Below the pieces are notes generated by a model. The model did no database searches, was not told the DNA's origin, and saw only the letters and a program-made list of their open reading frames with translations. The position numbers were made by a program, and so were the translations under genes. From Eledone cirrhosa (taxonomy: Eukaryota), in contig OZ024748.1 in NCBI GenBank assembly GCA_964016885.1, positions 26,474,001 to 26,538,000 on the forward strand: a DNA stretch of 64,000 nt, read 5' to 3'. This document shows positions 1 to 64,000 of the stretch, one piece after another; within the stretch, counting starts at the first letter, position 1; the number at the start of each line of letters is the position of its first letter.

Positions 1-3000
1 ACAACAGCAACAACATCACAGCTTCCTTCAACAAGTGAAATCCATATAGAAACTCCTAAATCTACTTCTGAACTGCCTCATATAACTGACATTGAAACAA
101 GTACAGTGGAAAGGACAACACAAATTACAGATATTGAAACTGAACGCACAACTCAGACAGAAATTACACCACAACTAACAACATCTCCTGAAGAAACAAC
201 TCTGTCTACTCAGGTAGAGGACATCGAAAAGGTGACACCAACACAAGTTGCTAGCACAATGCATACATCACCTGAAACAACAGTTGTTTCATCTCCAGAA
301 CACACCTCTATAACACCTACAGATGAACTTACTAGTATTGAATATACAACTGAGACATCAACTGAAAAACCACTACCTATCAAGACACCTACAAGCACGG
401 CAGAAAAGATCACTGAAACTATAACAGACACAGTAGCAACAACATCACAGCTTCCTTCAACAAGTGAAATCCATATAGAAACTCCTAAATCTACTTCTGA
501 ACTGCCTTATACAACTGACATTGAAACAAGTACAGCGGAAAGGACAACACAAATTACAGATATTGAAACTGAACGCACAACTCAGACAGAAATTACACCA
601 CAACTAACAACATCTCCTGAAGAAACAACTCTGTCTACTCAGGTAGAGGACATCGTAAAGGTGACACCAACACAAGTTGCTAGCACAATGCATACATCAC
701 CTGAAACAACAGTTGTTTCATCTCCAGAACGCACCTCTATAACACCTACAGATGAACTTACTAGTATTGAATATACAACTGAGACATCAACTGAAAAACC
801 ACTACCTATCAAGACACCTACAAGCACAGCGGAAAAGATCACTGAAACTAGAACAGACACAACAGCAACAACATCACAGCTTCCTTTAAGAACAACACAA
901 GTTACAGATATTGAAACTGAGCGCACAACTCAGACAGAAATTACACCACAACAAACAACATCTCCTAAAGAAACAACACTGTCTACTCATATAACTGACA
1001 TTGAAACAAGTACAGTGGAAAGAACAACACAAATTACAGATATTGAAACTGAACGCACAACTCAGACAGAAATTACACCACAACTAACAACATCTGAAGA
1101 AACAACTCTGTCAACTCAGGTAGAGGACATCGAAAAGGTGACACCAACAACAGTTGTTTCATCTCCAGAACACACCTCTATAACACCTACAGGTGAACTT
1201 ACTAGTATTGAATATACAACTGAGACATCAACTGAAAAACCACTACCTGTCAAGACACATACAAGCACCGCAGAAAAGATCACTGAAACTAGAACAGACA
1301 CAACAGCAACAACATCACAGTTTCCTTTAACAAGTGAAATCCATATAGAAACTCATAAATCTACTTCTGAACTGCCTCATATAACTGACATTGAAACAAG
1401 TACAGTGGAAAGAACAACACAAATTACAGATATTGAAACTGAACGCACAACTCAAGCAGAAATTACACCACAACAAACAACATCTCCTGAAGAAACAACT
1501 CTGTCTGCTCAGGTAGAGGACATCGAAAAGGTGACACCAACACAAGTTGCTAGAACAATGCATACATCACCTGAAACAACAGTTGTTTCATCTCCAGAAC
1601 ACACCTCTATAACACTTACAGATGAACTTATTAGTATTGAATATACAACTGAGACATCAACTGAAAAACCACTACCTATCAAGACACCTACAAGCACAGC
1701 AGAAAAGATCACTGAAACTATAACAGACACAGCAGCAACAACATCACAGCTTCCTTCAACAAGTGAAATCCATATAGAAACTCCTAAATCTACTTCTGAA
1801 CTGCCTCATATAACTGACATTGAAACAAGTACAGTGGAAAGAACAACACAAATTACAGATATTGAAACTGAACGCACAACTCAGACAGAAATTACACCAC
1901 AACTAACAACATCTCCTGAAGAAACAACTCTGTCTACTCAGGTAGAGGACATCGAAAAGGTGACACCAACACAAGTTGCTAGCACAATGCATACATCACC
2001 TGAAACAACAGTTGTTTCATCTCCAGAACACACCTCTATAACACCTACAGATGAACTTACTAGTATTGAATATACAACTGAGACATCAACTGAAAAACCA
2101 CTACCTATAAAGACACCTACAAGCACAGCAGAAAAGATCACTGAAACTAGAACAGACACAACAGCAACGACATCACAGCTTCCTTTAACAACTGAAATCC
2201 ATATAGAAACTCCTAAATCTACTTCTGAACTGCCTCATATAACTGACATTGAAACAAGTACAGTGGAAAGAACAACACAAATTACAGATATTGAAACTGA
2301 ACGCACAACTCAGACAGAAATTACACCACAACTAACAACATCTCCTGAAGAAACAACTCTGTCTACTCAGGTAGAGGACATCGAAAGGGTGACACCAACA
2401 CAAGTTGCTAGCACAATGCATACATCACCTGAAACAACAGTTGTTTCATCTCCAGAACACACCTCTATAACACCTACAGATGAACTTACTAGTATTGAAT
2501 ATACAACTGAGACATCAACTGAAAAACCACTACCTATGACAACAAGTACAAGCACAGCAGAAAAGATCACTGAAACTAGAACAGACACAACAGCAACAAC
2601 ATCACAGCTTCCTTCAACAAGTGAAATCCATATAGAAACTCCTAAATCTACTTCTGAACTGCCTCATATAACTGACATTGAAACAAGTACAGTGGAAAGA
2701 ACAACACAAGTTACAGATATTGAAACTGAGCGCACAACTCAGACAGAAATTACACCACAACACACAACATCTCCTGAAGAAACAACACTGTCTACTCAGG
2801 TAGAGGACATCGTAAAGGTGACAGCAACACAAGTTGCTAGCACAATGCATACATCACCTGAAACGACAGTTGTTTCATCTCCTGAACACACCTCTATGAC
2901 ACCTACAGATGAACATACTATTATTGAATATAGAACTGAGACATCAACTGAAAAACCACTACCTATAAAGACACCTACAAGCACAGCTGAAAAGATCACT

Positions 3001-6000
3001 GAAACTATAACAGACATAACAGCAACAACATCACAGCTTCCTTCAACAAGTGAAATCCATATAGAAACTCCTAAATCTACTTCTGAACTGCCTCATATAA
3101 CTGACATTGAAACAAGTACAGTGGAAAGAACAACACACGTTACAGATATTGAAACTGAACGCACAACTCAGACAGAAATTACACCACAACTAACAACATC
3201 TCCTGAAGAAACAACTCTGTCTACTCAGGTAGAGGACATCGAAAAGGTGACACCAACACAAGTTGCTAGCACAATGCATACATCACCTGAAAGAACAGTT
3301 GTTTCATCTCCTGAACACACTTCTATAACACCTACAGATGAACTCACTATTAAAGAATACATAACTGAGACATCAACAGAAAAATCACTACCTATGACAA
3401 CACCTACACGCACAGCAGAAAAGATCACTGAAACTAGAACAGACACAGCAGCAACAACATCACAGCTTCCTTCAACAAGTGAAATCCATATAGAAACTCA
3501 TAAATCTACTTCTGAACTGCCTCATATAACTGACATTGAAAAAAGTACAGTGGAAAGAACAACACAAGTTACAAATATTGAAACTAAGCGCACAACTCAG
3601 ACAGAAATTACACCACAACAAACAACATCTCCTGAAGAAACAACGCTGTCTACTCAGGTAGAGGACATCGTAAAGGTGACACCAACACAAGTTGCTAGCA
3701 CAATGCATACATCACCTGAAACAACAGTTGTTTCATCTCCTGAACACACCTCTATAACACCTACAGATGAACTTACTAGTATTGAATATACAACTGAGAC
3801 ATCAACTGAAAAACCACTACCTATCAAGACACATACAAGCACAGCAGAAAAGATCACTGAAACTAGAACAGACACAACAGCAACAACATCACAGCTTCCT
3901 TCAACAAGTGAAATCCATATAGAAACTCCTAAATCTACTTCTGAACTGCCTCATATAACTGACATTGAAACAAGTACAGTGGAAAGAACAACACAAATTA
4001 CAGATATTGAGACTGAACGCACAACTCAGACAGAAAGTACACCACAACTAACAACATCTCCTGAAGAAACAACTCTGTCTACTCAGGTAGAGGACATCGA
4101 AAGGGTGACACCAACACAAGTTGCTAGCACAATGCATACATCACCTGAAACAAAAGTTGTTTCATCTTCTGAACACACCTCTATAACACCTACAGATGAA
4201 CTTACTAGTATTGAATATAGAACTGAGACATCAACTGAAAAATCACTACCTACGATAACACCTACAAGCACAGCAGAAAAGATCACTGAAAATATAACAG
4301 ACACAACAGCAACAACGTCACAGCTTCCTTCAACAAGTGAAATCCATATAGAAACTCCTAAATCTACTTCTGAACTGCCTCATATAACTGACATTGAAAC
4401 AAGTACAGTGGAAAGAACAACACAAGTTACAGATATTGAAACTGAGCGCACAACTCAGACAGAAATTACACCACAACAAACAACATCTGAAGAAACAACA
4501 CTGTCTACTCAGGTAGAGGACATCGTAAAGGTGACACCAACACAAGTTGCTAGCACAATGCATACATCACCTGAAACAACAGTTGTTTCGTCTCCAGAAC
4601 ACACCTCTATAACACCTACACATGAACTTACTAGTATTGAATATACAACTGAGACATCAACTGAAAAACCACTACCTATAAAGACACCTACAAGCACAGC
4701 TGAAAAGATCACTGAAACTATAACAGACACAACAGCAACAACATCAAAGCTTCCTTCAACAAGTGAAACCCATATAGAAACTCCTAAATCTACTTCTGAA
4801 CTGCCTCATATAACTTACATTGAAACAAGTACAGTGGAAAGAACAACACAAATTACAGATATTGAAACTGAACGCACAACTCAGACAGAAATTACACCAC
4901 AACTAACAACATCTCCTGAAGAAACAAGTCTGTCTACTCAGGTAGAGGACATCGAAAGGGTGCCACCAACACAAGTTGCTAGCACAATGCATACATCACC
5001 TGAAACAACAGTTGTTTCATCTCCAGAACACACCTCTATAACACCTACAGATGAACTTACTAGTATTGAATATAGAACTGAGACATCAACTGAAAAATCA
5101 CTACCTACGATAACACCTACAAGCACAGCAGAAAAGATCACTGAAACTATAACAGACACAACAGCAACAACATCACAGCTTCCTTCAACAAGTGAAATCC
5201 ATATAGAAACTCCTAAATCTACTTCTGAACTGCCTCATATAACTGACATTGAAACAAGTACAGTGGAAAGAACAACACAAATTACAGATATTGAAACTGA
5301 ACGCAGAACTCAGACAGAAATTACACCACAACTAACAACATCTCCTGAAGAAGCAACTCTGTCTACTCAGGTAGAGGACATCGAAAGGGTGACACCAACA
5401 CAAGTTGCTAGCACAATGCATACATCACCTGAAACAACAGTTGTTTCATCTCCAGAACACACCTCTATAACACCTACAGATGAACTTACTAGTATTGAAT
5501 ATATAACTGAGACATCAACTGAAAAACCACTACCTATCAAGACACCTACAAGCACAGCAGAAAAGATCACTGAACCTAGAACAGACACAACAGCAACAAC
5601 ATCACAGCTTCCTTCAACAAGTGAAATCCATATAGAAACTCCTAAATCTACTTCTGAACTGCCTCATATAACTGACATTGAAACAAGTACAGTGGAAAGA
5701 ACAACACAAATTACAGATATTGAAACTGAACGCACAACTCAGACAGAAATTACACCACAACTAACAACATCTCCTGAAGAAACAACTCTGTCTACTCAGG
5801 TAGAGGACATCGAAAGGGTGACACCAACACAAGTTGCTAGCACAATGCATACATCACCTGAAACAACAGTTGTTTCATCTCCAGAAATCACCTCTATAAC
5901 ACCTACAGATGAACTTACTAGTATTGAATATACAACTGTGACATCAACTGAAAAACCACTACCTATAAAGACACCTACAAGCACAGCTGAAAAGATCACT

Positions 6001-9000
6001 GAAACTAGAACAGACACAACAGCAACAACATCACAGCTTCCTTCAGCAAGTGAAATCCATATAGAAACTCCTAAATCTACTTCTGAACTGCCTCATATAA
6101 CAGACATTGAAACAAGTACAATGGAAAGAACAACACAAATTACAGATATTGAAACGGAACGCACAACTCAGACAGAAATTACACCACAACTAACAACATC
6201 TCCTGAAGAAACAACTCTGTCTACTCAGGTAGAGGACATCAAAAGGGTGACACCAACACAAGTTGCTAGCACAATGCATACATCACCTGAAACAACAGTT
6301 GTTTCATCTCCAGAACACACCTCTATAACACCTACAGATGAACTTACTAGTATTGAATATACAACTGAGACATCAACTGAAAAACCACTACCTATAAAGA
6401 CACCTACAAGCACAGCTGAAAAGATCACTGAAACTATAACAGACACAACATCAACAACAACACAGCTTCCTTCAACAAGTGAAATCCATATAGAAACTCC
6501 TAAATCTACTTCTGAACTGCCTCATATAACTGACATTGAAACAAGTACAGTGGAAAGAACAACACAAATTACAGATATTGAAACTGAACGCACAACTCAG
6601 ACAGAAATTACACCACAACTAACAACATCTCCTGAAGAAACAACTCTGTCTACTCAGGTAGAGGACATCGAAAGGGTGACACCAACACAAGTTGCTAGCA
6701 CAATGCATACATCACCTGAAACAACAGTTGTTTCATCTCCAGAACACACCTCTATAACACCTACAGATGAACTTACTAGTATTGAATATACAACTGAGAC
6801 ATCAACTGAAAAACCACTACCTATAAAGACACCTACAAGCACAGCAGAAAAGATCACTGAAACTATAACAGACACAACAGCAACAACATCACAGCTTCCT
6901 TCAACAAGTGAAATCCATATAGAAACTCCTAAATCTACTTCTGAACTGCCTCATATAACTGACATTGAAACAAGTACAGTGGAAAGAACAACACAAATTA
7001 CAGATATTGAAACTGAACGCACAACTCAGACAGAAATTACACCACAACTAACAACATCTCCTGAAGAAACAACTCTGTCTACTCAGGTAGAGGACATCGA
7101 AAAGGTGACACCAACACAAGTTGCTAGCACAATGCATACATCACCTGAAACAACAGTTGTTTCATCTCCAGAACACACCTCTATAACACCTACAGATGAA
7201 CTTACTAGTATTGAATATACAACTGAGACATCAACTGAAAAACCACTACCTATAAAGACACCTACAAGCACAGCTGAAAAGATCACTGAAACTATAACAG
7301 ACACAACAGCAACAACATCACAGCTTCCTTCAACAAGTGAAATCCATATAGAAACTCCTAAATCTACTTCTGAACTGCCTCATATAACTGACGTTGAAAC
7401 AAGTACGATGGAAAGAACAACACAAATTACAGATATTGAAACTGAACGCACAACTCAGACAGAAATTACACCACAACTAACAACATCTCCTGAAGAAACA
7501 ACTCTGTCTACTCAGGTAGAGGACATCGAAAAGGTGACACCAACACGAGTTGCTAGCACAATGCATACATCACCTGAAACAACAGTTGTTTCATCTCCTG
7601 AGCACACCTCTATAACATCTACAGATGAACTTACTAGTATTGAATATAGAACTGAGACATCAACTGAAAAATCACTACCTACGATAACACCTACAAGCAC
7701 AGCAGAAAAGATCACTGAAACTATAACAGACACAACAGCAACAACATCACAGCTTCCTTCAACAAGTGAAATCCATATAGAAACTCCTAAATCTACTTCT
7801 GAACTGCCTCATATAACTGACATTGAAACAAGTACAGTGGAAAGGACAACACAAATTACAGATATTGAAACTGAACGCACAACTCAGACAGAAATTACAC
7901 CACAACTAACAACATCTCCTGAAGAAACAACTCTGTCTACTCAGGTAGAGGACATCGTAAAGGTGACACCAACACAAGTTGCTAGCACAATGCATACATC
8001 ACCTGAAACAACAGTTGTTTCGTCTCCAGAACACACCTCTATAACACCTACAGATGAACTTACTAGTATTGAATATACAACTGAGACATCAACTGAAAAA
8101 CCACTACCTATCAAGACACCTACAAGCACGGCAGAAAAGATCACTGAAACTATAACAGACACAGTAGCAACAACATCACAGCTTCCTTCAACAAGTGAAA
8201 TCCATATAGAAACTCCTAAATCTACTTCTGAACTGCCTTATACAACTGACATTGAAACAAGTACAGCGGAAAGGACAACACAAATTACAGATATTGAAAC
8301 TGAACGCACAACTCAGACAGAAATTACACCACAACTAACAACATCTCCTGAAGAAACAACTCTGTCTACTCAGGTAGAGGACATCGAAAGGGTGACACCA
8401 ACACAAGTTGCTAGCACAATGCATACATCACCTGAAACAACAGTTGTTTCATCTCCAGAACACACCTCTATAACACCTACAGATGAACTTACTAGTATTG
8501 AATATACAACTGAGACATCAACTGAAAAACCACTACCTATAAAGACACCTACAAGCACAGCAGAAAAGATCACTGAAACTATAACAGACACAACAGCAAC
8601 AACATCACAGCTTCCTTCAACAAGTGAAATCCATATAGAAACTCCTAAATCTACTTCTGAACTGCCTCATATAACTGACATTGAAACAAGTACAGTGGAA
8701 AGAACAACACAAATTACAGATATTGAAACTGAACGCACAACTCAGACAGAAATTACACCACAACTAACAACATCTCCTGAAGAAACAACTCTGTCTACTC
8801 AGGTAGAGGACATCGAAAAGGTGACACCAACACAAGTTGCTAGCACAATGCATACATCACCTGAAACAACAGTTGTTTCATCTCCAGAACACACCTCTAT
8901 AACACCTACAGATGAACTTACTAGTATTGAATATACAACTGAGACATCAACTGAAAAACCACTACCTATAAAGACACCTACAAGCACAGCTGAAAAGATC

Positions 9001-12000
9001 ACTGAAACTATAACAGACACAACAGCAACAACATCACAGCTTCCTTCAACAAGTGAAATCCATATAGAAACTCCTAAATCTACTTCTGAACTGCCTCATA
9101 TAACTGACGTTGAAACAAGTACGATGGAAAGAACAACACAAATTACAGATATTGAAACTGAACGCACAACTCAGACAGAAATTACACCACAACTAACAAC
9201 ATCTCCTGAAGAAACAACTCTGTCTACTCAGGTAGAGGACATCGAAAAGGTGACACCAACACGAGTTGCTAGCACAATGCATACATCACCTGAAACAACA
9301 GTTGTTTCATCTCCTGAGCACACCTCTATAACATCTACAGATGAACTTACTAGTATTGAATATAGAACTGAGACATCAACTGAAAAATCACTACCTACGA
9401 TAACACCTACAAGCACAGCAGAAAAGATCACTGAAACTATAACAGACACAACAGCAACAACATCACAGCTTCCTTCAACAAGTGAAATCCATATAGAAAC
9501 TCCTAAATCTACTTCTGAACTGCCTCATATAACTGACATTGAAACAAGTACAGTGGAAAGGACAACACAAATTACAGATATTGAAACTGAACGCACAACT
9601 CAGACAGAAATTACACCACAACTAACAACATCTCCTGAAGAAACAACTCTGTCTACTCAGGTAGAGGACATCGTAAAGGTGACACCAACACAAGTTGCTA
9701 GCACAATGCATACATCACCTGAAACAACAGTTGTTTCGTCTCCAGAACACACCTCTATAACACCTACAGATGAACTTACTAGTATTGAATATACAACTGA
9801 GACATCAACTGAAAAACCACTACCTATCAAGACACCTACAAGCACGGCAGAAAAGATCACTGAAACTATAACAGACACAGTAGCAACAACATCACAGCTT
9901 CCTTCAACAAGTGAAATCCATATAGAAACTCCTAAATCTACTTCTGAACTGCCTTATACAACTGACATTGAAACAAGTACAGCGGAAAGGACAACACAAA
10001 TTACAGATATTGAAACTGAACGCACAACTCAGACAGAAATTACACCACAACTAACAACATCTCCTGAAGAAACAACTCTGTCTACTCAGGTAGAGGACAT
10101 CGAAAGGGTGACACCAACACAAGTTGCTAGCACAATGCATACATCACCTGAAACAACAGTTGTTTCATCTCCAGAACACACCTCTATAACACCTACAGAT
10201 GAACTTACTAGTATTGAATATACAACTGAGACATCAACTGAAAAACCACTACCTATGACAACAAGTACAAGCACAGCAGAAAAGATCACTGAAACTAGAA
10301 CAGACACAACAGCAACAACATCACAGCTTCCTTCAACAAGTGAAATCCATATAGAAACTCCTAAATCTACTTCTGAACTGCCTCATATAACTGACATTGA
10401 AACAAGTACAGTGGAAAGAACAACACAAGTTACAGATATTGAAACTGAGCGCACAACTCAGACAGAAATTACACCACAACACACAACATCTCCTGAAGAA
10501 ACAACACTGTCTACTCAGGTAGAGGACATCGTAAAGGTGACAGCAACACAAGTTGCTAGCACAATGCATACATCACCTGAAACGACAGTTGTTTCATCTC
10601 CTGAACACACCTCTATGACACCTACAGATGAACATACTATTATTGAATATAGAACTGAGACATCAACTGAAAAACCACTACCTATAAAGACACCTACAAG
10701 CACAGCTGAAAAGATCACTGAAACTATAACAGACATAACAGCAACAACATCACAGCTTCCTTCAACAAGTGAAATCCATATAGAAACTCCTAAATCTACT
10801 TCTGAACTGCCTCATATAACTGACATTGAAACAAGTACAGTGGAAAGAACAACACACGTTACAGATATTGAAACTGAACGCACAACTCAGACAGAAATTA
10901 CACCACAACTAACAACATCTCCTGAAGAAACAACTCTGTCTACTCAGGTAGAGGACATCGAAAAGGTGACACCAACACAAGTTGCTAGCACAATGCATAC
11001 ATCACCTGAAAGAACAGTTGTTTCATCTCCTGAACACACTTCTATAACACCTACAGATGAACTCACTATTAAAGAATACATAACTGAGACATCAACAGAA
11101 AAATCACTACCTATGACAACACCTACACGCACAGCAGAAAAGATCACTGAAACTAGAACAGACACAGCAGCAACAACATCACAGCTTCCTTCAACAAGTG
11201 AAATCCATATAGAAACTCCTAAATCTACTTCTGAACTGCCTCATATAACTGACATTGAAACAAGTACAGTGGAAAGAACAACACAAATTACAGATATTGA
11301 GACTGAACGCACAACTCAGACAGAAAGTACACCACAACTAACAACATCTCCTGAAGAAACAACTCTGTCTACTCAGGTAGAGGACATCGAAAGGGTGACA
11401 CCAACACAAGTTGCTAGCACAATGCATACATCACCTGAAACAACAGTTGTTTCATCTCCAGAACACACCTCTATAACACCTACAGATGAACTTACTAGTA
11501 TTGAATATACAACTGAGACATCAACTGAAAAACCACTACCTATAAAGACACCTACAAGCACAGCTGAAAAGATCACTGAAACTATAACAGACACAACAGC
11601 AACAACATCACAGCTTCCTTCAACAAGTGAAATCCATATAGAAACTCCTAAATCTACTTCTGAACTGCCTCATATAACTGACGTTGAAACAAGTACGATG
11701 GAAAGAACAACACAAATTACAGATATTGAAACTGAACGCACAACTCAGACAGAAATTACACCACAACTAACAACATCTCCTGAAGAAACAACTCTGTCTA
11801 CTCAGGTAGAGGACATCGAAAAGGTGACACCAACACGAGTTGCTAGCACAATGCATACATCACCTGAAACAACAGTTGTTTCATCTCCTGAACACACCTC
11901 TATAACATCTACAGATGAACTTACTAGTATTGAATATAGAACTGAGACATCAACTGAAAAATCACTACCTACGATAACACCTACAAGCACAGCAGAAAAG

Positions 12001-51000: not shown

Positions 51001-54000
51001 GAGACATCAACTGAAAAACCACTACCTATGACAACACCTACAAGCACAGCTGAAAAGATCACTGAAACTATAACAGACACAACAGCAACAACATCACAGC
51101 TTCCTTCAACAAGTGAAATCCATATAGAAACTCCTAAATCTACTTCTGAACTGCCTCATATAACTGACATTGAAACAAGTACAGTGGAAAGAACAACACA
51201 AATTACAGATATTGAAACTGAACGCACAACTCAGACAGAAATTACACCACAACTAACAACATCTCCTGTAGAAACAACTCTGTCTACTCAGGTAGAGGAC
51301 ATCGAAAAGGTGACACCAACACAAGTTGCTAGCACAATGCATACAACAACTGAAACAATAGTTGTTTCATCTCCAGAACACACCTCTATACCACCTACAG
51401 ATGAACTTACTATTAAAGAATACACAACTGAGACATCAACTGAAAAATCACTACCTATGACAACACCTACAAGCACAGCAGAAAAGATCACTGAAACTAG
51501 AACAGACACAACAGCAACAACATCACAGCTTCCTTCAATAAGTGAAATCCATATAGAAACTCCTAAATCTACTTCTGAACTGCCTCATATAACTGACATT
51601 GAAACAAGTACAGTGGAAAGAACAACACAAATTACAGATATTGAAACTGAGCGCACAACTCAGACAGAACTTACACCACAACTAACAACATCTCCTAAAG
51701 AAACCACTCTGTCTACTCAGGTAGAGGACATCGAAAGGGTGACAGCAACAAAAGTTGCTAGCACAATACATACATCACCTGAAACAACAGTTGTTTCATC
51801 TCCTGAACACACTTCTATAACAACTACAGATGAACTTACTAGTATTGAATATACAACTGAGACATCAACTGAAAAACCACTACCTATAAAGACACCTACA
51901 AGCAAAGCAGAAAAGATCACTGAAACTAGAACAGACACAACAGCAACAACATCACAGCTTACTTCAACAAGTGAAATCCATATAGAAACTCCTAAATCTA
52001 CTTCTGAACTGCCTCATATAACTGACATTGAAACAAGTACAGTGGAAAGAACAACACTAATTACAGATATTGAAACTGAACGCACAACTCACACAGAAAT
52101 TACACCACAACTAACAACATCTCCTGAAGAAACAACTCTGTCTACTCAGGTAGAGGACATCGAAAAGGTGACACCAACACAAGTTGCTAGCACAATGCAT
52201 ACATCACCTGAAACAACAGTTGTTTCATCTCCTGAACACACCTCTATAACAACTATAGATGAACTTACTAGTATTGAATATACAACTGAGACATCAACTG
52301 AAAAACCACTACCTATCAAGACACCTACAAGCACAGCAGAAAAGATCACTGAAACTAGAACAGACACAACAGCAACAACATCACAGCTTCCTTCAACAAG
52401 TGAAATCCATATAGAAACTCATAAATCTACTTCTGAACTGCCTCATATAACTGACATTGAAACAAGTACAGTGGGAAGAACAACACAAGTTACAGATATT
52501 GAAACTAAACGCACAACTCAGACAGAAATTACACCACAACTAACAACATCTCCTGAAGAAACAACTGTGTCTACTCAGGTAGAGGACATCGAAAAGGTGA
52601 CAGCAACACAAGTCTCTAGCACAATGCATACATCACCTGAAACAACGGTTGTTTCATCTCCTGAACACACTTCTATAACACCTACAGATGAACTCTCTAT
52701 TAAAGAATACACAACTGAGACATCAACTGAAAAATCACTACCTATAAAGACACCTACAAGCACAGCTGAAAAGATCACTGAAACGATAACAGACACAACA
52801 GCAACAACATCACAGCTTCCTTCAACAAGTGAAATCCATATAGAAACTCCTAAATCTACTTCTGAACTGCCTCATATAACTGACATTGAAACAAGTACAG
52901 TGGGAAGAACAACACACATTACAGATATTGAAACTAAACGCACAAAACAGACAGAAATTACACCACAACAAACAACATCTCCTGAAGAAACAACTCTGTC
53001 TACTCAAGTAGAGGACATCGAAAAGGTGACACCAACACAAGTTGCTAGCACAATGCATACATCACCTGAAACAACAGTTGTTTCATCTCCTGAACACACC
53101 TCTATAACACCTACAGATGAACTCACTAGTATTGAATATACAACTGAGACATCAACTGAAAAATCACTACCTATGACAACACCTACAAGCACAGCAGAAA
53201 AGATCACAGAAACTAGAACAGACACAACAGCAACAACATCACAGCTTCCTTCAACAAGTGAAATCCATATAGAAACTCCTAAAACTACTTCTGAACTGCC
53301 TCATATAACTGACACTGAAACAAGTACATTGGAAAGAACAACACAAGTTACAGATATTGAAACTGAGCGCACAACTCAGACAGAAATTACACCACAACAA
53401 ACAACATCTCCTGAAGAAACAACTCTGTCTACACAGGTAGAGGACATCGTAAAGGTGACACCAACACAAGTTGCTAGCACAATGCATACATCACCTGAAA
53501 CAACAGTTGTTTCATCTCCTGAACACACCTCTATAACACCTGCAGATGAACTCACTAGTATTGAATATACAACTGAGACATCAACTGAAAAATCACTACC
53601 TATGACAACACCTACAAGCACAGCAGAAAAGATCACTGAAACTAGAACAGACACAACAGCAACAACATCACAGCTTCCTTCAACAAGTGAAATCCATATA
53701 GAAACTCCTAAATCTACTTCTGAACTGCCTCATATAACTGACATTGAAACAGGTACAGTGGAAAAAACAACACAAATTACAGATATTGAAACTGAACGCA
53801 CAACTCAGACAGAAATTACACCACAACGAACAACATCTCCTGAAGAAACAACACTGTCTACTCAGGTAGAGGACATCGTAAAGGTGACACCAACACAAGT
53901 TGCTAGCACAATGCATGCATCACCTGAAACTACAGTTGTTTCATCTCCTGAACACACCTCTATAACACCTACAGATGAACTTACTAGTATTGAATATACA

Positions 54001-57000
54001 ACTGAGACATCAACTGAAAAACCACTACCTATCAAGAAACCTACAAGCACAGCAGAAAAGATCACTGAAACTAGAACAGACACAACAGCAACATCACAGC
54101 TTCCTTCAACAAGTGAAATCCATATAGAAACTCCTAAATCTACTTCTGAACTCCCTCATATAACTGACATTGAAACAAGTACAGTGGAAAGAACAACACA
54201 AATTACAGATATTGAAACTGAACGCACAACTGAGACACAACTTACACCACAACAAACAACATCTCCTGAAGAAACCACTCTGTCTACTCAGGTAGAGGAC
54301 ATCGAAATGGTGACAGCAACACAAGTTGCTAGCACAATGCATACATCACCTGAAACAACAGTCGTTTCATCTCCTGAACACACCTCTATAACACCTACAG
54401 ATCAACTCACTAATATTGAATATACAACTGAGACATCAACTGAAAAACCACTACCTATAAAGACACCTACAAGCACATCAGAAAAGATCACTGAAACTAG
54501 AACAGACACAACAGCAACAACATCACAGCTTCCTTCAACAAGTGAAATCGATATAGAAACTCGTAAATCTACTTCTGAACTGCCTCATATAACTGATATT
54601 GAAACAAGTACAGTGGAAAGAACAACACTAATTACAGATATTGAAACTGAACGCACAACTCAGACAGAAATTACACCACAACTAACAACATCTCCTGAAG
54701 AAACAACTCTGTCTACTCAGGTAGAGGACATCGAAAAGGTGACAACAACACAAGTTGCTAGCACAATGCATACATCACCTGAAACAACAGTTGTTTCATC
54801 TGCTGAACACACCTCTATAACACCTACAGATGAACTTACTAGTATTGAATATACAACTGAGACATCAACTGAAAAACCACTACCTATCAAGTCACCTACA
54901 AGCACAGCAGAAAAGATCACTGAAACTAGAACAGACACAACAGCAACAACATCACAGCTTCCTTCAACAAGTGAAATCCATATAGAGACTCTTAAATCCA
55001 CTTCTGAAATGCCTCATATAACTGACATTGAAACAAGTACAGTGGAAAGAACAACACAAGTTACAGATATTGAAACTGAACGCACAACTCAGACAGAAAT
55101 TACACCACAACTAACAACATCTCCTCAAGAAACAACTCTGTCTACTCAGGTAGAGGACATCGAAAAGGTGACACAAATACAAGTTGCTAGCACAATGCAT
55201 ACATCACCTGCAACAACAGTTGTTTCATCTCCTGAACACACCTCTATAACACCTACAGATGAACTCACTAGTATTGAATATACAACTGAGACATCAACTG
55301 AAAAATCACTACCTATGACAACACCTACAAGCACAGCAGAAAAGATCACTGAAACTAGAACAGACACAACAGCAACAACATCACAGCTTCCTTCAACAAG
55401 TGAAATCCATATAGAAACTCCTAAATCAGCTTCTAGAATGCCTCATATAACTGACATTGAAACAAGTACAGTGGAAAGAACAACACAAATTATAGATATT
55501 GAAACTGAACGCACGACTCAGACAGAAATTACACCACAACTAACAACATCTCCTGAAGAAACAACTCTGTCTACTCAGGTAGAGGACATCGAAAAGGTGA
55601 CACCAACACAAGTTGCTAGCACAATGCATACAACAACTGAAACAATAGTTGTTTCATCTCCAGAACACACCTCTATACCACCTACAGATGAACTTACTAG
55701 TATTGAATATACAACTGAGACATCAACTGAAAAATCACTACCTATGACAACACCTACAAGCACAGCAGAAAAGATCACTGAAACTAGAACAGACACAACA
55801 GCAACAACATCACAGCTTCCTTCAATAAGTGAAATCCATATAGAAACTCCTAAATCTACTTCTGAACTGCCTCATATAACTGACATTGAAACAAGTACAG
55901 TGGAAAGAACAACACAAATTACAGATATTGAAACTGAGCGCACAACTCATACAGAACTTACACCACAACTAACAACATCTCCTAAAGAAACCACTCTGTC
56001 TACTCAGGTAGAGGACATCGAAAGGGTGACAGCAACAAAAGTTGCTAGCACAATACATACATCACCTGAAACAACAGTTGTTTCATCTCCTGAACACACT
56101 TCTATAACACCTACAGATGAACTCACTATTAAAGAACACACAACTGAGACATCAACTGAAAAATCACTACCTATGACAACACCTACAAGCACAGCAGAAA
56201 AGATCACTGAAACTAGAACAGACACAACAGCAACAACATCACAGCTTCCTTCAACAAGTGAAATCCATATAGAAACTCCTAATTCAGCTTCTGAACTGCC
56301 TCATATAACTGACATTGAAACAAGTACAGTGGAAAGAACAACACAAATTACAGATATTGAAACTGAACGCACAACTCAGACAGAAATTACACCACAACTA
56401 ACAACATCTCCTGTAGAAACAACTCTGTCTACTCAGGTAGAGGACATCGAAAAGGTGACACCAACACAAGTTGCTAGCACAATGCATACAACAACTGAAA
56501 GAACAGTTGTTTCATCTCCAGAACACACCTCTATACCACCTACAGATGAACTTACTAGTATTGAATATACAACTGAGACATCAACTGAAAAACCACTACC
56601 TATAAAGACACCTACAAGCACAGCTGAAAAGATCACTGAAACTATAACAGACACAACAGCAACAACATCACAGCTTCCTTCAACAAGTGAAATCCATATA
56701 GAAACTCCTAAATCTACTTCTGAACTGCCTCATATAAGTGACATTGAAACAAGTACAGTGGAAAGAACAACACAAATTACAGATATTGAAACTGAGCGCA
56801 CAACTCAGACAGAACTTACACCACAACAAACAACATCTCCTAAAGAAACCACTCTGTCTACTCAGGTAGAGGACATCGAAAGGGTGACACCAACACAAGT
56901 TGCTAGCACAATACATACATCACCTGAAACAACAGTTGTTTCATCTCCAGAACACACCTCTATAACACCTACAGATGAACTTACTAGTATTGAATATACA

Positions 57001-60000
57001 ACTGAGACATCAACTGAAAAACCACTGCCTATAAAGACACCTACAAGCACAGCTGAAAAGATCACTGAAACTATAACAGACACAACAGCAACAACATCAC
57101 AGCTTCCTTCAACAAGTGAAATCCATATAGAAACTCCTAAATCAGCTTCTGAACTGCCTCATATAACTGACATTGAAACAAGTACAGTGGAAAGAACAAC
57201 ACAAATTACAGATATTGAAACTGAACGCACAACTCAGACAGAAATTACACCGCAACTAACAACATCTCCTGAAGAAACAACTCTGTCTACTCATGTAGAG
57301 GACATCGAAAAGGTGACAACAACAGAAGTTGCTAGTACAATGCATACATCACCTGAAACAACAGTTGTTTCATCTCCAGAACACACCTCTATAACACCTA
57401 CAGATGAACTTACTAGTATTGAATATACAACTGAGACATCAACTGAAAAACCACTACCTATCAAGACACCTACAAGCACAGCTGAAAAGATCACTGAAAC
57501 TAGAACAGACACAACAGCAACAACATCACAGCTTCCTTCAACAAGTGAAATCCATAGAGAAACTCCTAAATCTACTTCTGAACTGCCTCATATAACTGAC
57601 ATTGAAACAAGTACAGTGGAAAGAACAACACAAATGACAGATATTGAAACTGAGCGCACAACTCAGACAGAACTTACACCACAACAAACAACATCTCCTG
57701 AAGAAACAACACTGTCTACTCAGGTAGAGGACATCGGAAAGGTGACACCAACACAAGTTGCTAGCACAATGCATACACCACCTGATACAACAGTTGTTTC
57801 ATCTCCTGAACTCACCTCTATAACACCTACAGATGAACTCACTATTAAAGAATACACAACTGAGACATCAACTGAAAAATCACTACCTATGACAACACCT
57901 ACAAGCACAGTAGAAAAGATCACTGAAACTAGAACAGACACAACAGCAACAACATCACAGCTTCGTTCAACAAGTGAAATCCATATAGAAACTCCTAAAT
58001 CTACTTCTGAACTGCCTCATATAACTGACATTGAAACAAGTACAGTGGAAAGAACAACACAAATTACAGATATTGAAACAGAACACACAACTCAGACAGA
58101 AAGTACACCACAACTAACAACATCTCCTGAAGAAACAACTCTGTCTACTCAGGTAGAGGACATCGAAAAGGTGACACCAACACAAGTTGCTAGTACAATG
58201 CATACATCACCTGAAACAACAGTTGTTTCATCTCCTGAACACACATCTATAACACCTACAGATGAACTGATTAGTATTGAATATACATCTGATACATCAA
58301 CTGAAAAATCACTACCTATGACAACACCTACAAGCTCATCAGAAAAGATCACTGAAACTAGAACAGACACAACAGCAACAACATCACAGCTTCCTTCAAC
58401 AAGTGAAATCCATATAGAAACTCCTAAATCTACTTCTGAACTGCCTCATATAACTGACATTGAAACAAGTACAGTGGAAAGAACAACACAAATGACAGAT
58501 ATTGAAACAGAACACACAACTCAGACAGAAAGTACACCACAACTAACAACATCTCCTGAAGAAACAACTCTGTCTACTCAGGTAGAGGACATCGAAAAGG
58601 TGACACCAACACAAGTTGCTAGTACAATGCATACATCACCTGAAACAACAGTTGTTTCATCTCCTGAACACACCTCTATAACACCTACAGATGAACTTAC
58701 TAGTATAGAATATACAACTGAGACATCAACTGAAAAACCACTACCTATAAAGACACCTACAAGCACAGCAGAAAAGATCACTGAAACGATAACAGACACA
58801 ACAGCAATAACACCACAGCTTCCTTCAACAAGTGAAATCGATATAGAAACTCCTAAATCTACTTCTGAACTGCCTCATATAACTGACATTGAAACAAGTA
58901 CAGTGGAAAGAACAACACAAATTACAGATATTGAAACAGAACACACAACTCAGACAGAAAGTACACCACAACTAACAACATCTCCTGAAGAAACAACTCT
59001 GTCTACTCAGGTAGAGGACATCGAAAAGGTGACACCAACACAAGTTGCTACTACAATGCATACATCACCTGAAACAACAGTTGTTTCATCTCCTGAACAC
59101 ACATCTATAACACCTACAGATGAACTGATTATTATAGAATATACATCTGATACATCAACTGAAAAATCACTACCTATGACAACACCTACAAGCTCATCAG
59201 AAAAGATCACTGAAACTAGAACAGACACAACAGCAACAACATCACAGCTTCCTTCAACAAGTGAAATCCATATAGAAACTCCTAAATCTACTTCTGAACT
59301 GCCTCATATAACTGACATTGAAACAAGTACAGTGGAAAGAATGACACAAATGACAGATATTGAAACTGAACGCACAACTCAGACAGAAATTACACCACAA
59401 CTAACAACATCTCCTGAAGAAACAACACTGTCTACTCAGGTAGAGGACATCGAAAAGGTGACACCAACACAAGTTGCTAGCACAATGCATACATCACCTG
59501 AAACAACAGTTGTTTCATCTCCTGAACAAACCTCTATAACACCTACAGATGAACTTACTAGTATTGAATATACAACTGAGACATCAACTGAAAAGCCACT
59601 ACCTATCAAAACACCTACAAGCACAGCAGAAAAGATCACTGAAACTAGAACAGACACAACAGCAACAACATCACAGCTTCCTTCAACAAGTGAAATCCAT
59701 ATAGAAACTCATAAATCTACTTCTGAACTGCCTCATATAACTGACATTGAAACAAGTACAGTGGAAAGAACAACACAAATTACAGATATTGAAACAGAAC
59801 ACACAACTCAGACAGAAAGTACACCACAACTAACAACATCTCCTGAAGAAACAACTCTGTCTACTCAGGTAGAGGACATCGAAAAGGTGACACCAACACA
59901 AGTTGCTAGTACAATGCATACATCACCTGAAACAACAGTTGTTTCATCTCCTGAACACACATCTATAACACCTACAGATGAACTGATTAGTATAGAATAT

Positions 60001-60901
60001 ACATCTGATACATCAACTGAAAAATCACTACCTATGACAACACCTACAAGCACAGCAGAAAAGATCACTGAAACTAGAACAGACACAACAGCAACAACAT
60101 CACAGCTTCCTTCAACAAGTGAAATCCATATAGAAACTCCTAAATCTACTTCTGAACTGCCTCATATAACTGACATTGAAACAAGTACAGTGGAAAGAAC
60201 AACACAAATTACAGATATTGAAACTGAACGCTCAACTCAGACAGAAATTACACCACAATTAACAAAAACTACCAAACAAACAACTCTGTCTTTTCAGCCT
60301 GTGGATTTCAAAACCAGCAATAATGTATCAGGAACACGTGAGAAATGGGAGATGTACACATCTGAAGTTATGTCACCAGCTGCAAGTACTGCCGACTTTG
60401 TCATCAAATTTTTAACTATAACAACACCAACAACACCAACAACAACGCCAACAACAACGCCAACAACAACACCAACAACAACAACACCAACAACAACACC
60501 AACAACAACACCAACAACAACACCAACAACAACACCAACAACAACCCCAACAACAACACCAACAACAACAACACCAACAACAACGCCAACAACAACACCA
60601 ACAACAACACCAACAACAACGCCAACAACAACACCAACAACAACACCAACAACACCAACAACAACACCAACAACAACCCCAACAACAACACCAACAACAA
60701 CACCAACAACAACAACACCAACAACAACGCCAACAACAACACCAACAACAACACCAACAACAACACCAACAACAACGCCAACAACAACACCAACAACAAC
60801 GCCAACAACAACAACACCACCAACAACAAGGCCAACAACAACGCCAACAACAACAACAACGCCAACAACACCAACGCCAACAGCACCAACAACAACAACA
60901 C

Positions 60902-60933
<32 letters not shown>

Positions 60934-63900
60934 CCAACAACAACAACGCCAACAACACCAACAACAACACCAACACCAACGCCAACACCATCAACACCAA
61001 CAACACCAACAACAACACCGCCAACAACACCAACACCACCAACAACAACAACAACAACACCAACAGCAACACCCTCAGCGACACCCACACCACCAACAAC
61101 AACGTCAACAACAACGTCAATAACAACACCACCAACAACACCACCAACAACAACACCAACAACAAAATCCACAACACCAACAATAACAACAATGTCAACA
61201 ACACCACCACCAATTACAATTACACCTAAAACAACGAATCGAAAAACAACAGCAGTAACAGCAAAAACAATAACACCAACAACAACAACTACACCAACAA
61301 CAACATCAACAACTGCAACACAGCTTCCTTCAACAGCTCTATTACTAACTGAAACTACAGATGCAAGTTCTAGTTCTCTTCCACAAAGTGCCATTTACCG
61401 TAGCACATTGCAAAGTACAAAAAAAATTAAAATTATAGAAACGGAACGCACAACTGATGCAGTAATTACAACTCAACTAACAACATCAACTGCACAAACA
61501 AGTCTGACAACTCAGGTAGAAGACATTGAAAAATTGACACCAACACCAGTTTTTACCACAATGCATACACCAACTGAAACAACAGTGGTTTCATCTCCTG
61601 AACACACCTCTATAACACCTACAGAGGAACTTACTAGTATAGAATATACATCTGAGACATCAACTGAAAAATCACTACCTATGACAACACCTACAAGCAC
61701 AGCAGAAAAGATCACTGAAACTATTACAGACACAACAGCAACAACATCACAGCTCCCTTCAACAAGTGAAATCCATATAGAAACTCCTAAATCTACTTCT
61801 CAACTTCCTTATACAACTGACATTGAAACAAGAACAGTGGAAAGAACAACACAAATTACAGATATTGAAACTGAACGTTCAACTCAGACAGAAATTACAC
61901 CACAACTAACAACATCGCCTGAAGAAACAACAATGTCTACTCAGGTAGAGGACATCGAAAAGGTGACACCAACACAAGTTGCTAGCACAAAGCAAACATC
62001 AACTGAAACAACAGTTGTTTCTTCTACTGAACAAACCTCTATAACACCTACAGATGAACTCACTAGTATTGAATATACTACTGAGACAGCAACTGAAAAA
62101 CCACTACCTATCAAGAGACCTACAAGCACAGCAGAAAAGATCACTGAAACTAGAACAGACACAACAGCAACAACATCACAGCTTCCTTCAACAAGTGAAA
62201 TCCATATAGAAACTCCTAAATCTACTTCTGAACTGCCTCATACAACTGACATTGAAACAAGTACAGTGGAAAGAACAACACAAATTACAGATATTGAAAC
62301 TGAGCGCTCAACTCGGACAGAAATTACATCACAACTAACAAGTTCTCCTGAAGAAACAACTCTGTCTACTCAGGTAGAGGACATTGAAAAGGTGACACCA
62401 ACACCAGTTGCTAGCACAAAGCATACATCACCTGAAACAACAGTAGTTTCATCTCCTGAACACACCTCTATAACACCTACAGATGAACTCACTCGTATTG
62501 AATATACTATTGAGACATCAACTAAAAAATCACTACCTATGACAACACCTACCAGCACAGCAGAAAAGATCACTGAAACTATTACAGACACAACAGCAAC
62601 AACACCACAGCTTTCTCCAACAAGCGAAATCCATATAGAAACTCCAAAATCTACTTCTCAACTTCCTTATACAACTGACATTGAAACAAGTACAGTGGGA
62701 AGAACAACACAAATTACAGATATTGAAACTGAGCGCACAACTGAGACAGAACGTACACCACAACTAACAACATCTCCTGAAGAAACAACTCTGTCTACTG
62801 AGGTGGAGGACATCGAAAAGGTGACACCAACACAAGTTGCTAGCACAATGCATACATCACCTAAAACAACAGTTGTTTCATCTACTGAACACACCTCTCT
62901 AACATCATCTACAGAGGAACTCACTAGTATAAAATATACTCCTGAGACATCAACTGAAAAGTCACTACCTATCAAGACACCTACAAGCACAGCAGAAAAG
63001 ATCACTGAAACTATAACAGACACAACAGCAACAACATCACAGCTTCCTTCAACAAGTGAAATCCATATAGAAACTCCTAAATCTACTTCTGAACTTCCTT
63101 ATACAACTGACATTGAAACAAGTACAGTGGAAAGAACAACACAAATTACAGATATTGAAACTGAGCACACAACTCAGACAGAAATTACACCACAACTAAC
63201 AACATCTCCTGAAGAAACAACACTGTCTACTCAGGTAGAGGACATCGAAAAGGTGACACCAACACAAGTTGCTAACACAATACATACATCCCCTGAAACA
63301 ACAGTTGTTTCATCTCCTGAACACACCTCTATAACACCTACAGATGAACTTACTAGTATTGAATATACAACTGAGACATCAACTAAAAAACCACTACCTA
63401 TCAAGACACCTACAAGCACAGCTGAAATGATCACTGAAACTATTACAGACACAACAGCAACAACATCACAGCTTCCTTCAACAAGTGAAATCCATATAGA
63501 AACTCCAAAATCTACTTCTCAAATTCCTTATACAACTGACATTGAAACAAGGACAGTGGAAAGAACAACACAAATTACAGATATTGAAACTGAGCACACA
63601 ACTCAGACAGAAATTACACCACAACTAACAACATCTCCTGAAGAAACAACACTGTCTACACAGGTACAGGACATCGAAAAGGTGACACAAACACAAGTTG
63701 CTACCACAAAGCATACGTCACCTGAAATAACAGTAGTTTCATCTCCAGAACACACCTCTATAACACCTACAGATGAACTTACTATTATTGAATATAAAAC
63801 TGAGACATCAACTGAAAAACCACTACCTATCAAGACAGCTACAAGCACAGCAGAAAAGATCACTGAAACTAGAACAGACACAACAGCAACAACATTACAG

Positions 63901-63999
63901 CTTCCTTCAACAAGTGAAATCCATATAGAAACTCCTAAATCTACTTCTGAACTGCCTCATATAAGTGACATTGAAACAAGTACAGTGGAAAGAACAACA
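1..63999 (+). CDS. Partial giant mucin-like (PTS-domain) glycoprotein, at least 21,333 codons, open at both window edges
   Basis: Frame +1 translates to a repeated 143-aa peptide (first unit by hand count: 43 Thr, 16 Ser, 12 Pro, 20 Glu, 5 Asp, no Cys/Gly/Asn/Phe/Trp). A fixed landmark in each unit (210, 639, 1116, 1509 ... 60294, 61512 ... 63231) always falls on a coordinate divisible by 3, so frame is kept. Almost every unit has an in-frame ATG, yet the ORF track reports no frame +1 ORF, as expected if the frame contains no stop. I translated the non-repeat parts of 60241-61560 by hand and found them open. Confidence 0.88.
6560..10250 (+). repeat. Higher-order tandem duplication, period 1716 bp (4 monomers)
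   Basis: Diagnostic variants (gacgttgaa...acgatg, acacgagtt, acagtagca, ccttatacaact) recur at +1716. Units 6654/7083/7512/7941 match 8370/8799/9228/9657. Confidence 0.9.
8825..13790 (+). repeat. Higher-order duplication, period 2574 bp (6 monomers)
   Basis: Variant units at 9228/9657/10086/10515/10944 recur at 11802/12231/12660/13089/13518. Confidence 0.88.
24400..28755 (+). repeat. Higher-order tandem duplication, period 2145 bp (5 monomers)
   Basis: Variants gagtggaaa (24622/26767), gaggcatca (25261/27406), cagcgtcct and gaattc (26233/28378) recur at +2145. Confidence 0.92.
28640..33855 (+). repeat. Higher-order tandem duplication, period 2574 bp (6 monomers)
   Basis: Units 28980/29409/29838/30267/30696 recur at 31554/31983/32412/32841/33270 with shared private variants (gttactagc, tctagacag, actggaaca, cctcagata). 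Confidence 0.92.
36720..44150 (+). repeat. Higher-order duplication, period 3432 bp (8 monomers), with a nested 1287-bp (3-monomer) re-duplication
   Basis: Units 36702/37131/37560/37989/38418 recur at 40134/40563/40992/41421/41850. The triplet 40992-41850 recurs at 42279-43137, then the series resumes (43566 matches 38847). Confidence 0.88.
58070..60040 (+). repeat. Alternating dimer higher-order repeat, period 858 bp
   Basis: The variant unit carrying cacacatct and tatacatctgatacatca occurs at 58149, 59007 and 59865, alternating with near-consensus units. Confidence 0.8.
60262..60420 (+). other. Unique in-frame linker interrupting the array (TKTTKQTTLSFQPVDFKTSNNVSGTREKWEMYTSEVMSPAASTADFVIKFLTI)
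   Basis: The repeat consensus decays from about 60262 and is lost after 60297. The segment is stop-free in frame +1 and contains Phe, Trp, Gly and Asn, which are absent from the repeat consensus. An N-V-S sequon lies at 60322-60330. Confidence 0.8.
60421..61320 (+). repeat. Low-complexity coding tract (CCA ACA ACA ACA)n encoding (PTTT)n, about 300 codons
   Basis: Almost pure ACA/ACG/CCA/CCC codons from 60421 to about 60830. It becomes progressively degenerate (Ser, Ala, Ile, Lys) up to 61320. Confidence 0.95.
61321..61512 (+). repeat. Highly diverged half-copy of the 429-bp unit
   Basis: QLPSTALLLTETTDASSSSLPQSAIYRSTLQSTKKIKIIETERTTDAVITTQLTTSTAQTSLTT has the same 192-nt length as consensus QLPST...TLST. 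It retains QLPST, IETERTT and QLTTS. Confidence 0.85.
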
Positions 64000-64000
64000 C
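61513..64000 (+). repeat. Second segment of the 429-bp array (about 5.8 more diverged copies, runs off the window)
   Basis: Landmarks at 61512, 61941, 62370, 62799, 63231 (+3 nt) and 63660. Each unit carries more private substitutions than units in 1-45 kb. Confidence 0.97.

Follow-up and report, generated by a model that had tools for sequence, protein, structure and literature searches.

A candidate 299.6-kb coding exon in Eledone cirrhosa and the giant mucin-like protein it may encode

A tandem repeat that stays open in one reading frame for tens of kilobases raises the question of whether it encodes a very large protein or is a satellite whose unit happens to carry no stop codon. Here we address this question for a stretch of 64,000 nucleotides from the 3.0-Gb genome of Eledone cirrhosa (C8:26474001-26538000, hereafter the window), for which an earlier note, made from the sequence letters, had proposed an uninterrupted frame +1, a single exon of at least 64 kb and a mucin-like protein of at least 21,333 residues. 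Our results place the window inside a 299.6-kb exon that is almost certainly a genuine coding exon, preceded by a VWA exon and followed by a last exon with a predicted divergent VWA domain. The most far-reaching form of the reading that we favor, at a probability of roughly 55%, is that the gene would yield a single polypeptide of ~100,000 residues and 10.8 MDa (several times more with glycans), acting as a pre-polymerised mucin with VWA clips at both ends.

The open frame and the exon that holds it

By computation, frame +1 contains no stop in the 21,333 codons of window positions 1-63999, as had been claimed, and the remaining five frames contain 469-2,486 stops each, with open runs of at most 366 codons; the window sequence has no N. 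Extending the analysis into the flanks (300 kb before and 100 kb after the window) showed the same frame to be open over C8:26254023-26553722, or 99,900 codons, with no N inside and the nearest assembly gap at 26223315. The in-frame stop that the earlier note had named as its refutation is absent from all of these codons, and the exon that splice signals delimit within them exceeds the earlier lower bound 4.7-fold. The anatomy of the gene is as follows:

C8:26251515-26252066, + strand: VWA exon (PF00092), 552 bp, phase 1-1, 2.1 kb upstream of the giant exon
C8:26254135-26553705, + strand: giant exon, 299,571 bp or 99,857 codons, phase 1-1, starting 219.9 kb before the window and ending 15.7 kb after it
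C8:26254467-26274611, + strand: Thr/Gly/Pro block within the giant exon, ~6,700 residues
C8:26274612-26275706, + strand: linker within the giant exon, ~365 residues
C8:26275707-26552546, + strand: main array, 636 units, 479 of them distinct, ~92,300 residues
C8:26552547-26553705, + strand: non-repeat exon end, ~386 unique residues
C8:26555818-26556398, + strand: last exon, 581 bp, 2.1 kb downstream of the giant exon, predicted divergent VWA, ending in TAA

The giant exon has five parts in all, opening with ~110 unique residues ahead of the Thr/Gly/Pro block. Its acceptor, before C8:26254135, presents branch-point, pyrimidine and AG signals, and its donor, after 26553705, reads AAG/GTAAGA; its length is divisible by 3, and its phase-1 sites fit both neighboring exons. 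The two VWA exons lie 304 kb apart, and the modelled chain comprises 100,233 codons from the VWA exon to the stop.

Four sequencing runs from one study (X1-X4, run type not on record) match the 3′ stretch, and two of the four were mapped onto the 5′ region (L041). A 645-nt contig of X4 (record 15, depth 4.9) is composed of L041:7143-7466 and L041:9535-9855 (324 + 321 letters), fusing the VWA donor (26252066) exactly to the giant-exon acceptor (26254135). Because this contig is spliced, we infer that X4 is RNA. Contigs of X1 span the intron and cross the giant-exon acceptor unspliced. X1-X3, in which 0.87-0.91 of the 3′-stretch words recur, possibly stem from the sample that was used for the assembly. 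The corresponding match of X4 (0.51, for an exonic share of 0.47) is not counted as evidence, and no weight is given to the absence of listed X4 pieces from the opening 228 bases of the VWA exon and from any upstream exon.

At the other end, the junction falls at the same residue in protein models of Octopus bimaculoides (XP_014785251.1, 862 residues) and O. vulgaris (CAI9735081.1, 885 residues, named 'Mucin-5AC-like'), whose identity to the giant gene is 76-79% in the last exon, ~56% at the end of the giant exon and 40-48% across the repeat unit. The repeat homology (48% identity, 116 bits) stands well above the best of 200 shuffles (61.6 bits). Since these models carry a homologous unit of ~140-143 residues, the unit is older than the split from these Octopus species; the models themselves are short pieces lacking the first VWA. 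Phase-1 splice sites at both ends, the spliced contig at the 5′ junction, the shared Octopus 3′ junction and the purging of stops and frameshifts described below bear out the earlier proposal of a giant coding exon for a mucin-like protein.

Two further observations concern the non-array parts of the exon. The giant exon has seven AATAAA hexamers, all of them in the linker (C8:26274885-26275524) or the exon end (26553011 and 26553500), and the 277-kb array has none; premature polyadenylation within the linker is possible. On the minus strand, over the Thr/Gly/Pro block (C8:26254208-26274844), two frames are open for 4,046 and 2,832 codons; these were rejected as genes and are taken as shadows of the block's coding strand.

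The repeat array and selection on its frame

Within the window, a 429-bp periodicity was detected over positions 1-60291 and 61405-64000, and three features can be distinguished:

window 1..60258, + strand: tandem array of a 429-bp, 143-residue Thr-Glu-Ser-Ile-Pro unit, ~140 copies, stop-free in frame +1
window 60259..61404, + strand: in-frame interruption with ~50 non-repeat codons, a ~300-codon Thr/Pro island (60420-61313) and a degenerate unit
window 61405..64000, + strand: resumed array of more diverged units, 6 copies in the window, continuing to C8:26552546

The interruption is the sole long one of the array, and its ~50 non-repeat codons carry Trp and Phe, which are nearly absent elsewhere; it is a possible processing site or relic of an older spacer.

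A stop-free satellite unit could be open by chance, and the variants of the unit were therefore tested. In the window, 334 distinct substitutions among 136 full-length units include no nonsense change, against 15 expected (P~5e-9). Over the whole array there are 575 distinct substitutions and no real nonsense change, against 26 expected under type-specific rates from 44 possible nonsense changes; two apparent exceptions are double changes, and their codons read Ser and Leu. The same substitutions do create new stops in the other five frames (41 of 67, 29 of 62, 25 of 65, 32 of 75 and 16 of 48 possible). All 11 indel types preserve the frame (in variant-length units of up to 600 bp, 8 longer units falling outside the alignment), all 636 unit lengths are multiples of 3 (553 of them being full-length 429-bp units), and the lags of k-mer recurrence in two repeat blocks are multiples of 3 in 9,981 of 9,981 and 249,555 of 249,555 cases. 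For alleles that occur in a single eighth of the array, 0.3-3.9 stops are expected per eighth and 11.5 in total, and none is seen; the first eighth is stop-free against 7.0 expected from all alleles and 2.8 from private ones. Type-corrected nonsynonymous to synonymous odds are 1.13 for rare, 0.59 for common and 0.94 for all alleles. The conserved trait is hence the open frame and the composition, with amino-acid identity barely constrained.

That composition is dominated by Thr (31.8%), Ser (10.7%) and Pro (8.2%) over the 99,856 residues of the giant exon, whose product would have a mass of 10.85 MDa, 42,432 Ser and Thr residues, a net charge of -10,250 and 5 Cys. It thus has the long Pro/Thr/Ser (PTS) tandem-repeat domain that defines a mucin in the broad sense of a PTS-domain glycoprotein, and this domain lies in one large exon, as seen from the splice signals, the 5′ junction and the orthologue 3′ junction.

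A 26-mer of the unit occurs 503 times in the genome, always inside the giant exon. The units of the array differ pairwise by 4.1% on average, with 4.7-6.1% in the edge blocks and 3.0-3.6% in the central ones; greater divergence at the edges than at the centre is a pattern produced by unequal crossing-over. The longest exact repeat is 5.3 kb. Near-identical blocks span 25 units (3 differences, the copies lying 30 units apart), 18 units (4 differences) and 13 units (2 differences), and could be recent duplications or assembly errors. An identical twin exists for 217 of the 553 full-length units, and dropping every exact twin leaves ~205 kb. Non-coding tandem repeats in the flanks mostly have stops in every frame and periods that are not multiples of 3.

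Terminal domains and relatives

The earlier note had suggested that extension into the flanks would reveal the ends of the frame, splice sites and terminal domains. The first two were found; the domains are a VWA and a predicted divergent VWA, and not the VWD/C8/TIL, CysD, SEA or EGF domains that it had listed. In a Pfam scan of six segments, which left the first exon or exons outside, the VWA exon matched PF00092 with an E-value of 4e-33, and SEA, EGF and VWD/C8/TIL gave no match, VWA being the only family above the cut-off. Matches of the repeat to DUF3389, HPS6 and DUF7109 fell below the cut-off and were rejected. In the first VWA, D13, S15, S17, T86/T88 and D117 are invariant in all 12 aligned sequences, and this DxSxS..T..D pattern we take to be a metal site.

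The last exon is below Pfam detection as a VWA (E 0.32), and its best profile match among solved structures is weak (integrin alpha-E, E 0.0026). Its profile nevertheless aligns with that of the first domain at 94% in hhalign. A model from an 11-sequence alignment, with a predicted local distance difference test score (pLDDT) of 79.7, has as its top Foldseek matches collagen VI, integrin I domains, vWF A3 and PTMP1; it supersedes a poor single-sequence fold (pLDDT 45). As modelled, the last exon folds as a divergent VWA domain, without DxSxS.

These domains also bear on the class of mucin. Gel-forming mucins are marked by VWD-C8-TIL assemblies, CysD or a cystine knot and Cys-rich ends, and membrane-tethered mucins of the MUC1/12/16/17 type by SEA or EGF domains and a C-terminal membrane anchor. 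The former type (MUC2/5AC/5B/6) does not accommodate a gene with VWA domains only and 5 Cys in its giant exon. Membership in the latter is not indicated either, as the last exon is predicted to fold as a VWA and ends in TAA, a judgement made with no dedicated membrane-helix predictor. The Gly-X-Y triple helix of collagens is likewise absent, Gly amounting to 0.1% of the main array, 8% of the Thr/Gly/Pro block and 0.6% of the whole exon, and this low Gly content rules out the collagen label that some relatives bear.

One such relative, O. sinensis XP_029634555.2 (P0011, 498 residues), named 'collagen alpha-1(XXVIII) chain-like', consists of a signal-like peptide (a hydrophobic N-terminus, judged by eye), a VWA, a short Thr/Ser/Pro spacer and a divergent VWA, and at full length it matches VWA families only. 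It shares the VWA-PTS-divergent VWA layout of the giant gene, with 40% identity in the first domain and 27% in the last (E 5e-23). In E. cirrhosa itself, the last domain finds 10 further loci, seven of them clustered on C1:

C1:280.42-280.75 Mb (L043-L055), C15:8.09-8.12 Mb (L056-L059) and C37:54-63 kb (L060-L061): ten small paralogs

In all ten, a VWA exon lies 3.0-16.2 kb upstream of a VWA-like last exon. The phase-1 acceptor that precedes the VWA Cys codon in the giant gene recurs in P0011 and the paralogs. A PTS frame of at least 120 codons is present in 4 of the 10, the longest having 236 codons. On these sequence grounds, the giant belongs to a small VWA-PTS-VWA family and stands out by a spacer expanded several hundred- to a thousandfold: 99,857 codons, against ~90 residues in P0011 and at most 236 open codons in the paralogs with a detectable PTS frame. 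Two of the C1 paralogs, L047 and L049, point in opposite directions and carry almost identical last exons; they are probably a recent inverted duplication.

Closer relatives are few. The first VWA gave 12 matches among longer proteins (322-2000 residues), none above 40% identity, and a single match among proteins of similar length, at 86% identity, which is apparently an unspliced open reading frame (ORF). The exon start has one match among 1.84 billion proteins. The flanking domains are intact and 76-86% identical to those of relatives, and no full-length orthologue was found in last-exon and first-VWA searches of proteins of up to 2000 residues. The protein UPI0006959731 (P0016, 483 residues) matches the exon start (59%) and the linker (34%) with almost nothing between, and because it lacks the Thr/Gly/Pro block, that block may be a lineage-specific expansion, unless the P0016 model or its assembly dropped it.

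Signal-peptide heuristics gave no convincing candidate for the first exon in 77 kb upstream, and the same scan gave no clear one for the paralogs. A tblastn search with P0011 found no first exon here, and it also missed that of P0011's closest paralog. The N-terminus of another protein, P0017, looks like a wrong model. About 20 kb of (TA)n-like microsatellite and a 200-N assembly gap (at 26223315) occupy C8:26211000-26232500, and the missing exon may sit near or beyond this gap. Also in the flanks are a dispersed repeat of very high copy number, located 5′ of the VWA exon (L041:2989-3320, C8:~26247600-26247900), which has the top summed contig depth in both runs mapped there, and fragments at C8:26220433-26221737 (-), 26598007-26598918 (+) and 26624920-26626833 (-) that, from their motifs, we presume to be reverse transcriptases of long interspersed nuclear elements.

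Proposed product, alternatives and comparison with known giants

We propose a gene that would comprise a signal-peptide exon (not found), the VWA exon, one 299.6-kb Pro/Thr/Ser exon and the divergent VWA exon. At least some of its mRNA would retain the giant exon whole, giving a secreted glycoprotein of ~100,000 residues. Such retention and translation of the exon appear probable and, given whole translation, a secreted mucus or matrix role would by analogy be quite likely. The array would have arisen within a short PTS spacer through unequal crossing-over that kept the frame, a route suggested because its centre is more homogeneous than its edges, its amino-acid changes are near-neutral and its stops are purged. 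The chain is predicted to be densely O-glycosylated and would form an extended polyanionic bottlebrush of 25-36 micrometres contour, at 0.25-0.36 nm per residue. The VWA at each end would serve as a protein-binding clip, metal-dependent in the first and not in the second, and mucus or matrix would be built by chain length and end-binding, as a mucin polymer encoded in one piece. Disulfide polymerisation of the kind used by gel-forming mucins is not expected, because the exon encodes only 5 Cys. Proteins with VWA domains have been reported both from semislug adhesive (PMC11178922) and from the skin mucus of octopus (PMC11431876).

Several points weigh against this proposal. The function is argued by analogy, and no paper in the literature searched ties this gene to a tissue. 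RNA-type support consists of one contig of depth 4.9 from one run without an RNA label, neither a long read nor a peptide reaches across the array, and the upstream 77 kb yielded no signal-peptide exon. Five short peptides from the gene and its orthologues, together with four accession terms, are absent from the Octopus mucus-proteome supplement of PMC10138644. The six middle eighths of the array expect only 0.3-1.4 private-allele stops each, too few for selection to be seen part by part. Finally, the giant exon holds 373 phase-1 acceptor-like sites (T-rich followed by CAG) and 29 phase-1 AG/GTRA donor-like sites, which make in-frame shortening possible.

These last sites are central to the alternative that survives best, namely a real gene whose mRNAs are mostly shortened by in-frame exitron-type splicing, producing a ladder of mucin lengths in which the full chain is rare or never made. 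We regard this as possible but unlikely. At least 18 of the 29 donor-like sites lie in the Thr/Gly/Pro block, which P0016 lacks, another 506 AG/GTRA sites are in phase 0, and the consensus unit has a phase-0 CAG; strong donors are nonetheless scarce, with 13 GTRAG and 1 GTRAGT in 299.6 kb, and the X4 joint uses the first acceptor rather than an internal one. Homogenisation among units would keep even little-used ones stop-free. The first eighth of the array, which would be the most skipped, lacks stops as well, and this speaks against the ladder. The Octopus models are short, but they begin inside the array and lack the VWA, in the manner of truncated annotations. In vertebrates, cryptic sites and exitrons shorten long exons unless repressed (PMC11446547). 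Whole-exon retention and internal splicing can coexist.

It is improbable that the exon is real and its array was inflated by the assembly through tandem haplotypes or duplicated blocks. The near-identical blocks of 25, 18 and 13 units and the twinned units would fit such an origin, whereas the absence of any N in the frame, the limit of 5.3 kb on exact repeats, the absence of array-scale duplication, the 479 distinct units among 636 and the rise of divergence towards the edges all speak against it; since ~205 kb remain without exact twins, the product would be far above 45,000 residues even if inflated. A satellite or dead gene, held open by accident of its unit and homogenisation, is very improbable: near-neutral amino-acid change and the missing start exon are what it would predict, but the depletion of nonsense and frameshift changes is confined to one of six frames, splicing into the exon is exact, the flanking domains are intact, and the flanking non-coding repeats are mostly stop-bearing and out of multiples of 3.

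If translated whole, as we favor, the chain would be the largest animal or eukaryotic protein, and its exon the longest coding exon, found on record. Exon definition, nuclear export, ribosome processivity, translocation into the endoplasmic reticulum and Golgi glycosylation would have size limits testable in a single gene, for which we estimate 1.7-3.4 h of transcription and 6-14 h of translation. The gene points to a second route to mucus, through chain length and VWA end-binding instead of disulfide polymerisation, and the ten small paralogs offer a natural series of spacers from ~100 to ~100,000 residues. The entries retrieved for this gene from relatives are only fragments of 480-890 residues, which suggests that such giants are hidden in long-read assemblies.

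The size benchmarks cited by the earlier note (MUC16 and TTN exons, and titin) have been overtaken. Human MUC12 alleles reach 23,080 residues in what is termed the largest human coding exon (PMC13345508), PKZILLA-1 has 45,212 residues in 17 exons and a 136-kb transcript, ~25% above titin (bioRxiv 2024.01.29.577497), and giant ORFs of 85,804 and 147,155 residues are predicted in bacteria (Omnitrophota); the available part of PMC11573180 adds nothing on mucins or molluscs. Literature searches, in which subscription journals were thinly covered, turned up neither a description of this gene nor an exon longer than 100 kb, nor any animal protein larger than PKZILLA-1. The earlier placement among the largest exons and proteins known holds in that the chain, if translated whole, would surpass PKZILLA-1 (2.2 times its length, almost all of it encoded by one exon). 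Across all life, however, a longer protein has been predicted, namely the bacterial ORF of 147,155 residues.

To titin, PKZILLA-1 and the Omnitrophota ORFs the giant is alike in scale and unrelated in sequence and function. With vertebrate mucins that have a central exon of variable-number tandem repeats (MUC12, MUC4, MUC2, MUC5AC/B) it shares one large in-frame PTS repeat exon, but it is ~4 times longer (its exon exceeding the largest human coding exon about fourfold), and it differs in its acidic 143-residue unit, its VWA flanks and its near lack of Cys; neither VWD/C8/TIL/CK or SEA domains nor a membrane anchor turned up in it. Mussel PTMP1 (PDB 4cn8), which is the second sequence match of the first domain (E 2.7e-23) and among the fold matches of the last, and the matrilin-like VWA proteins of gastropod glue resemble it in placing VWA domains in mollusc matrix or glue. 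These proteins are small, whereas the giant would hold its two VWA domains apart by a spacer of ~100,000 residues.

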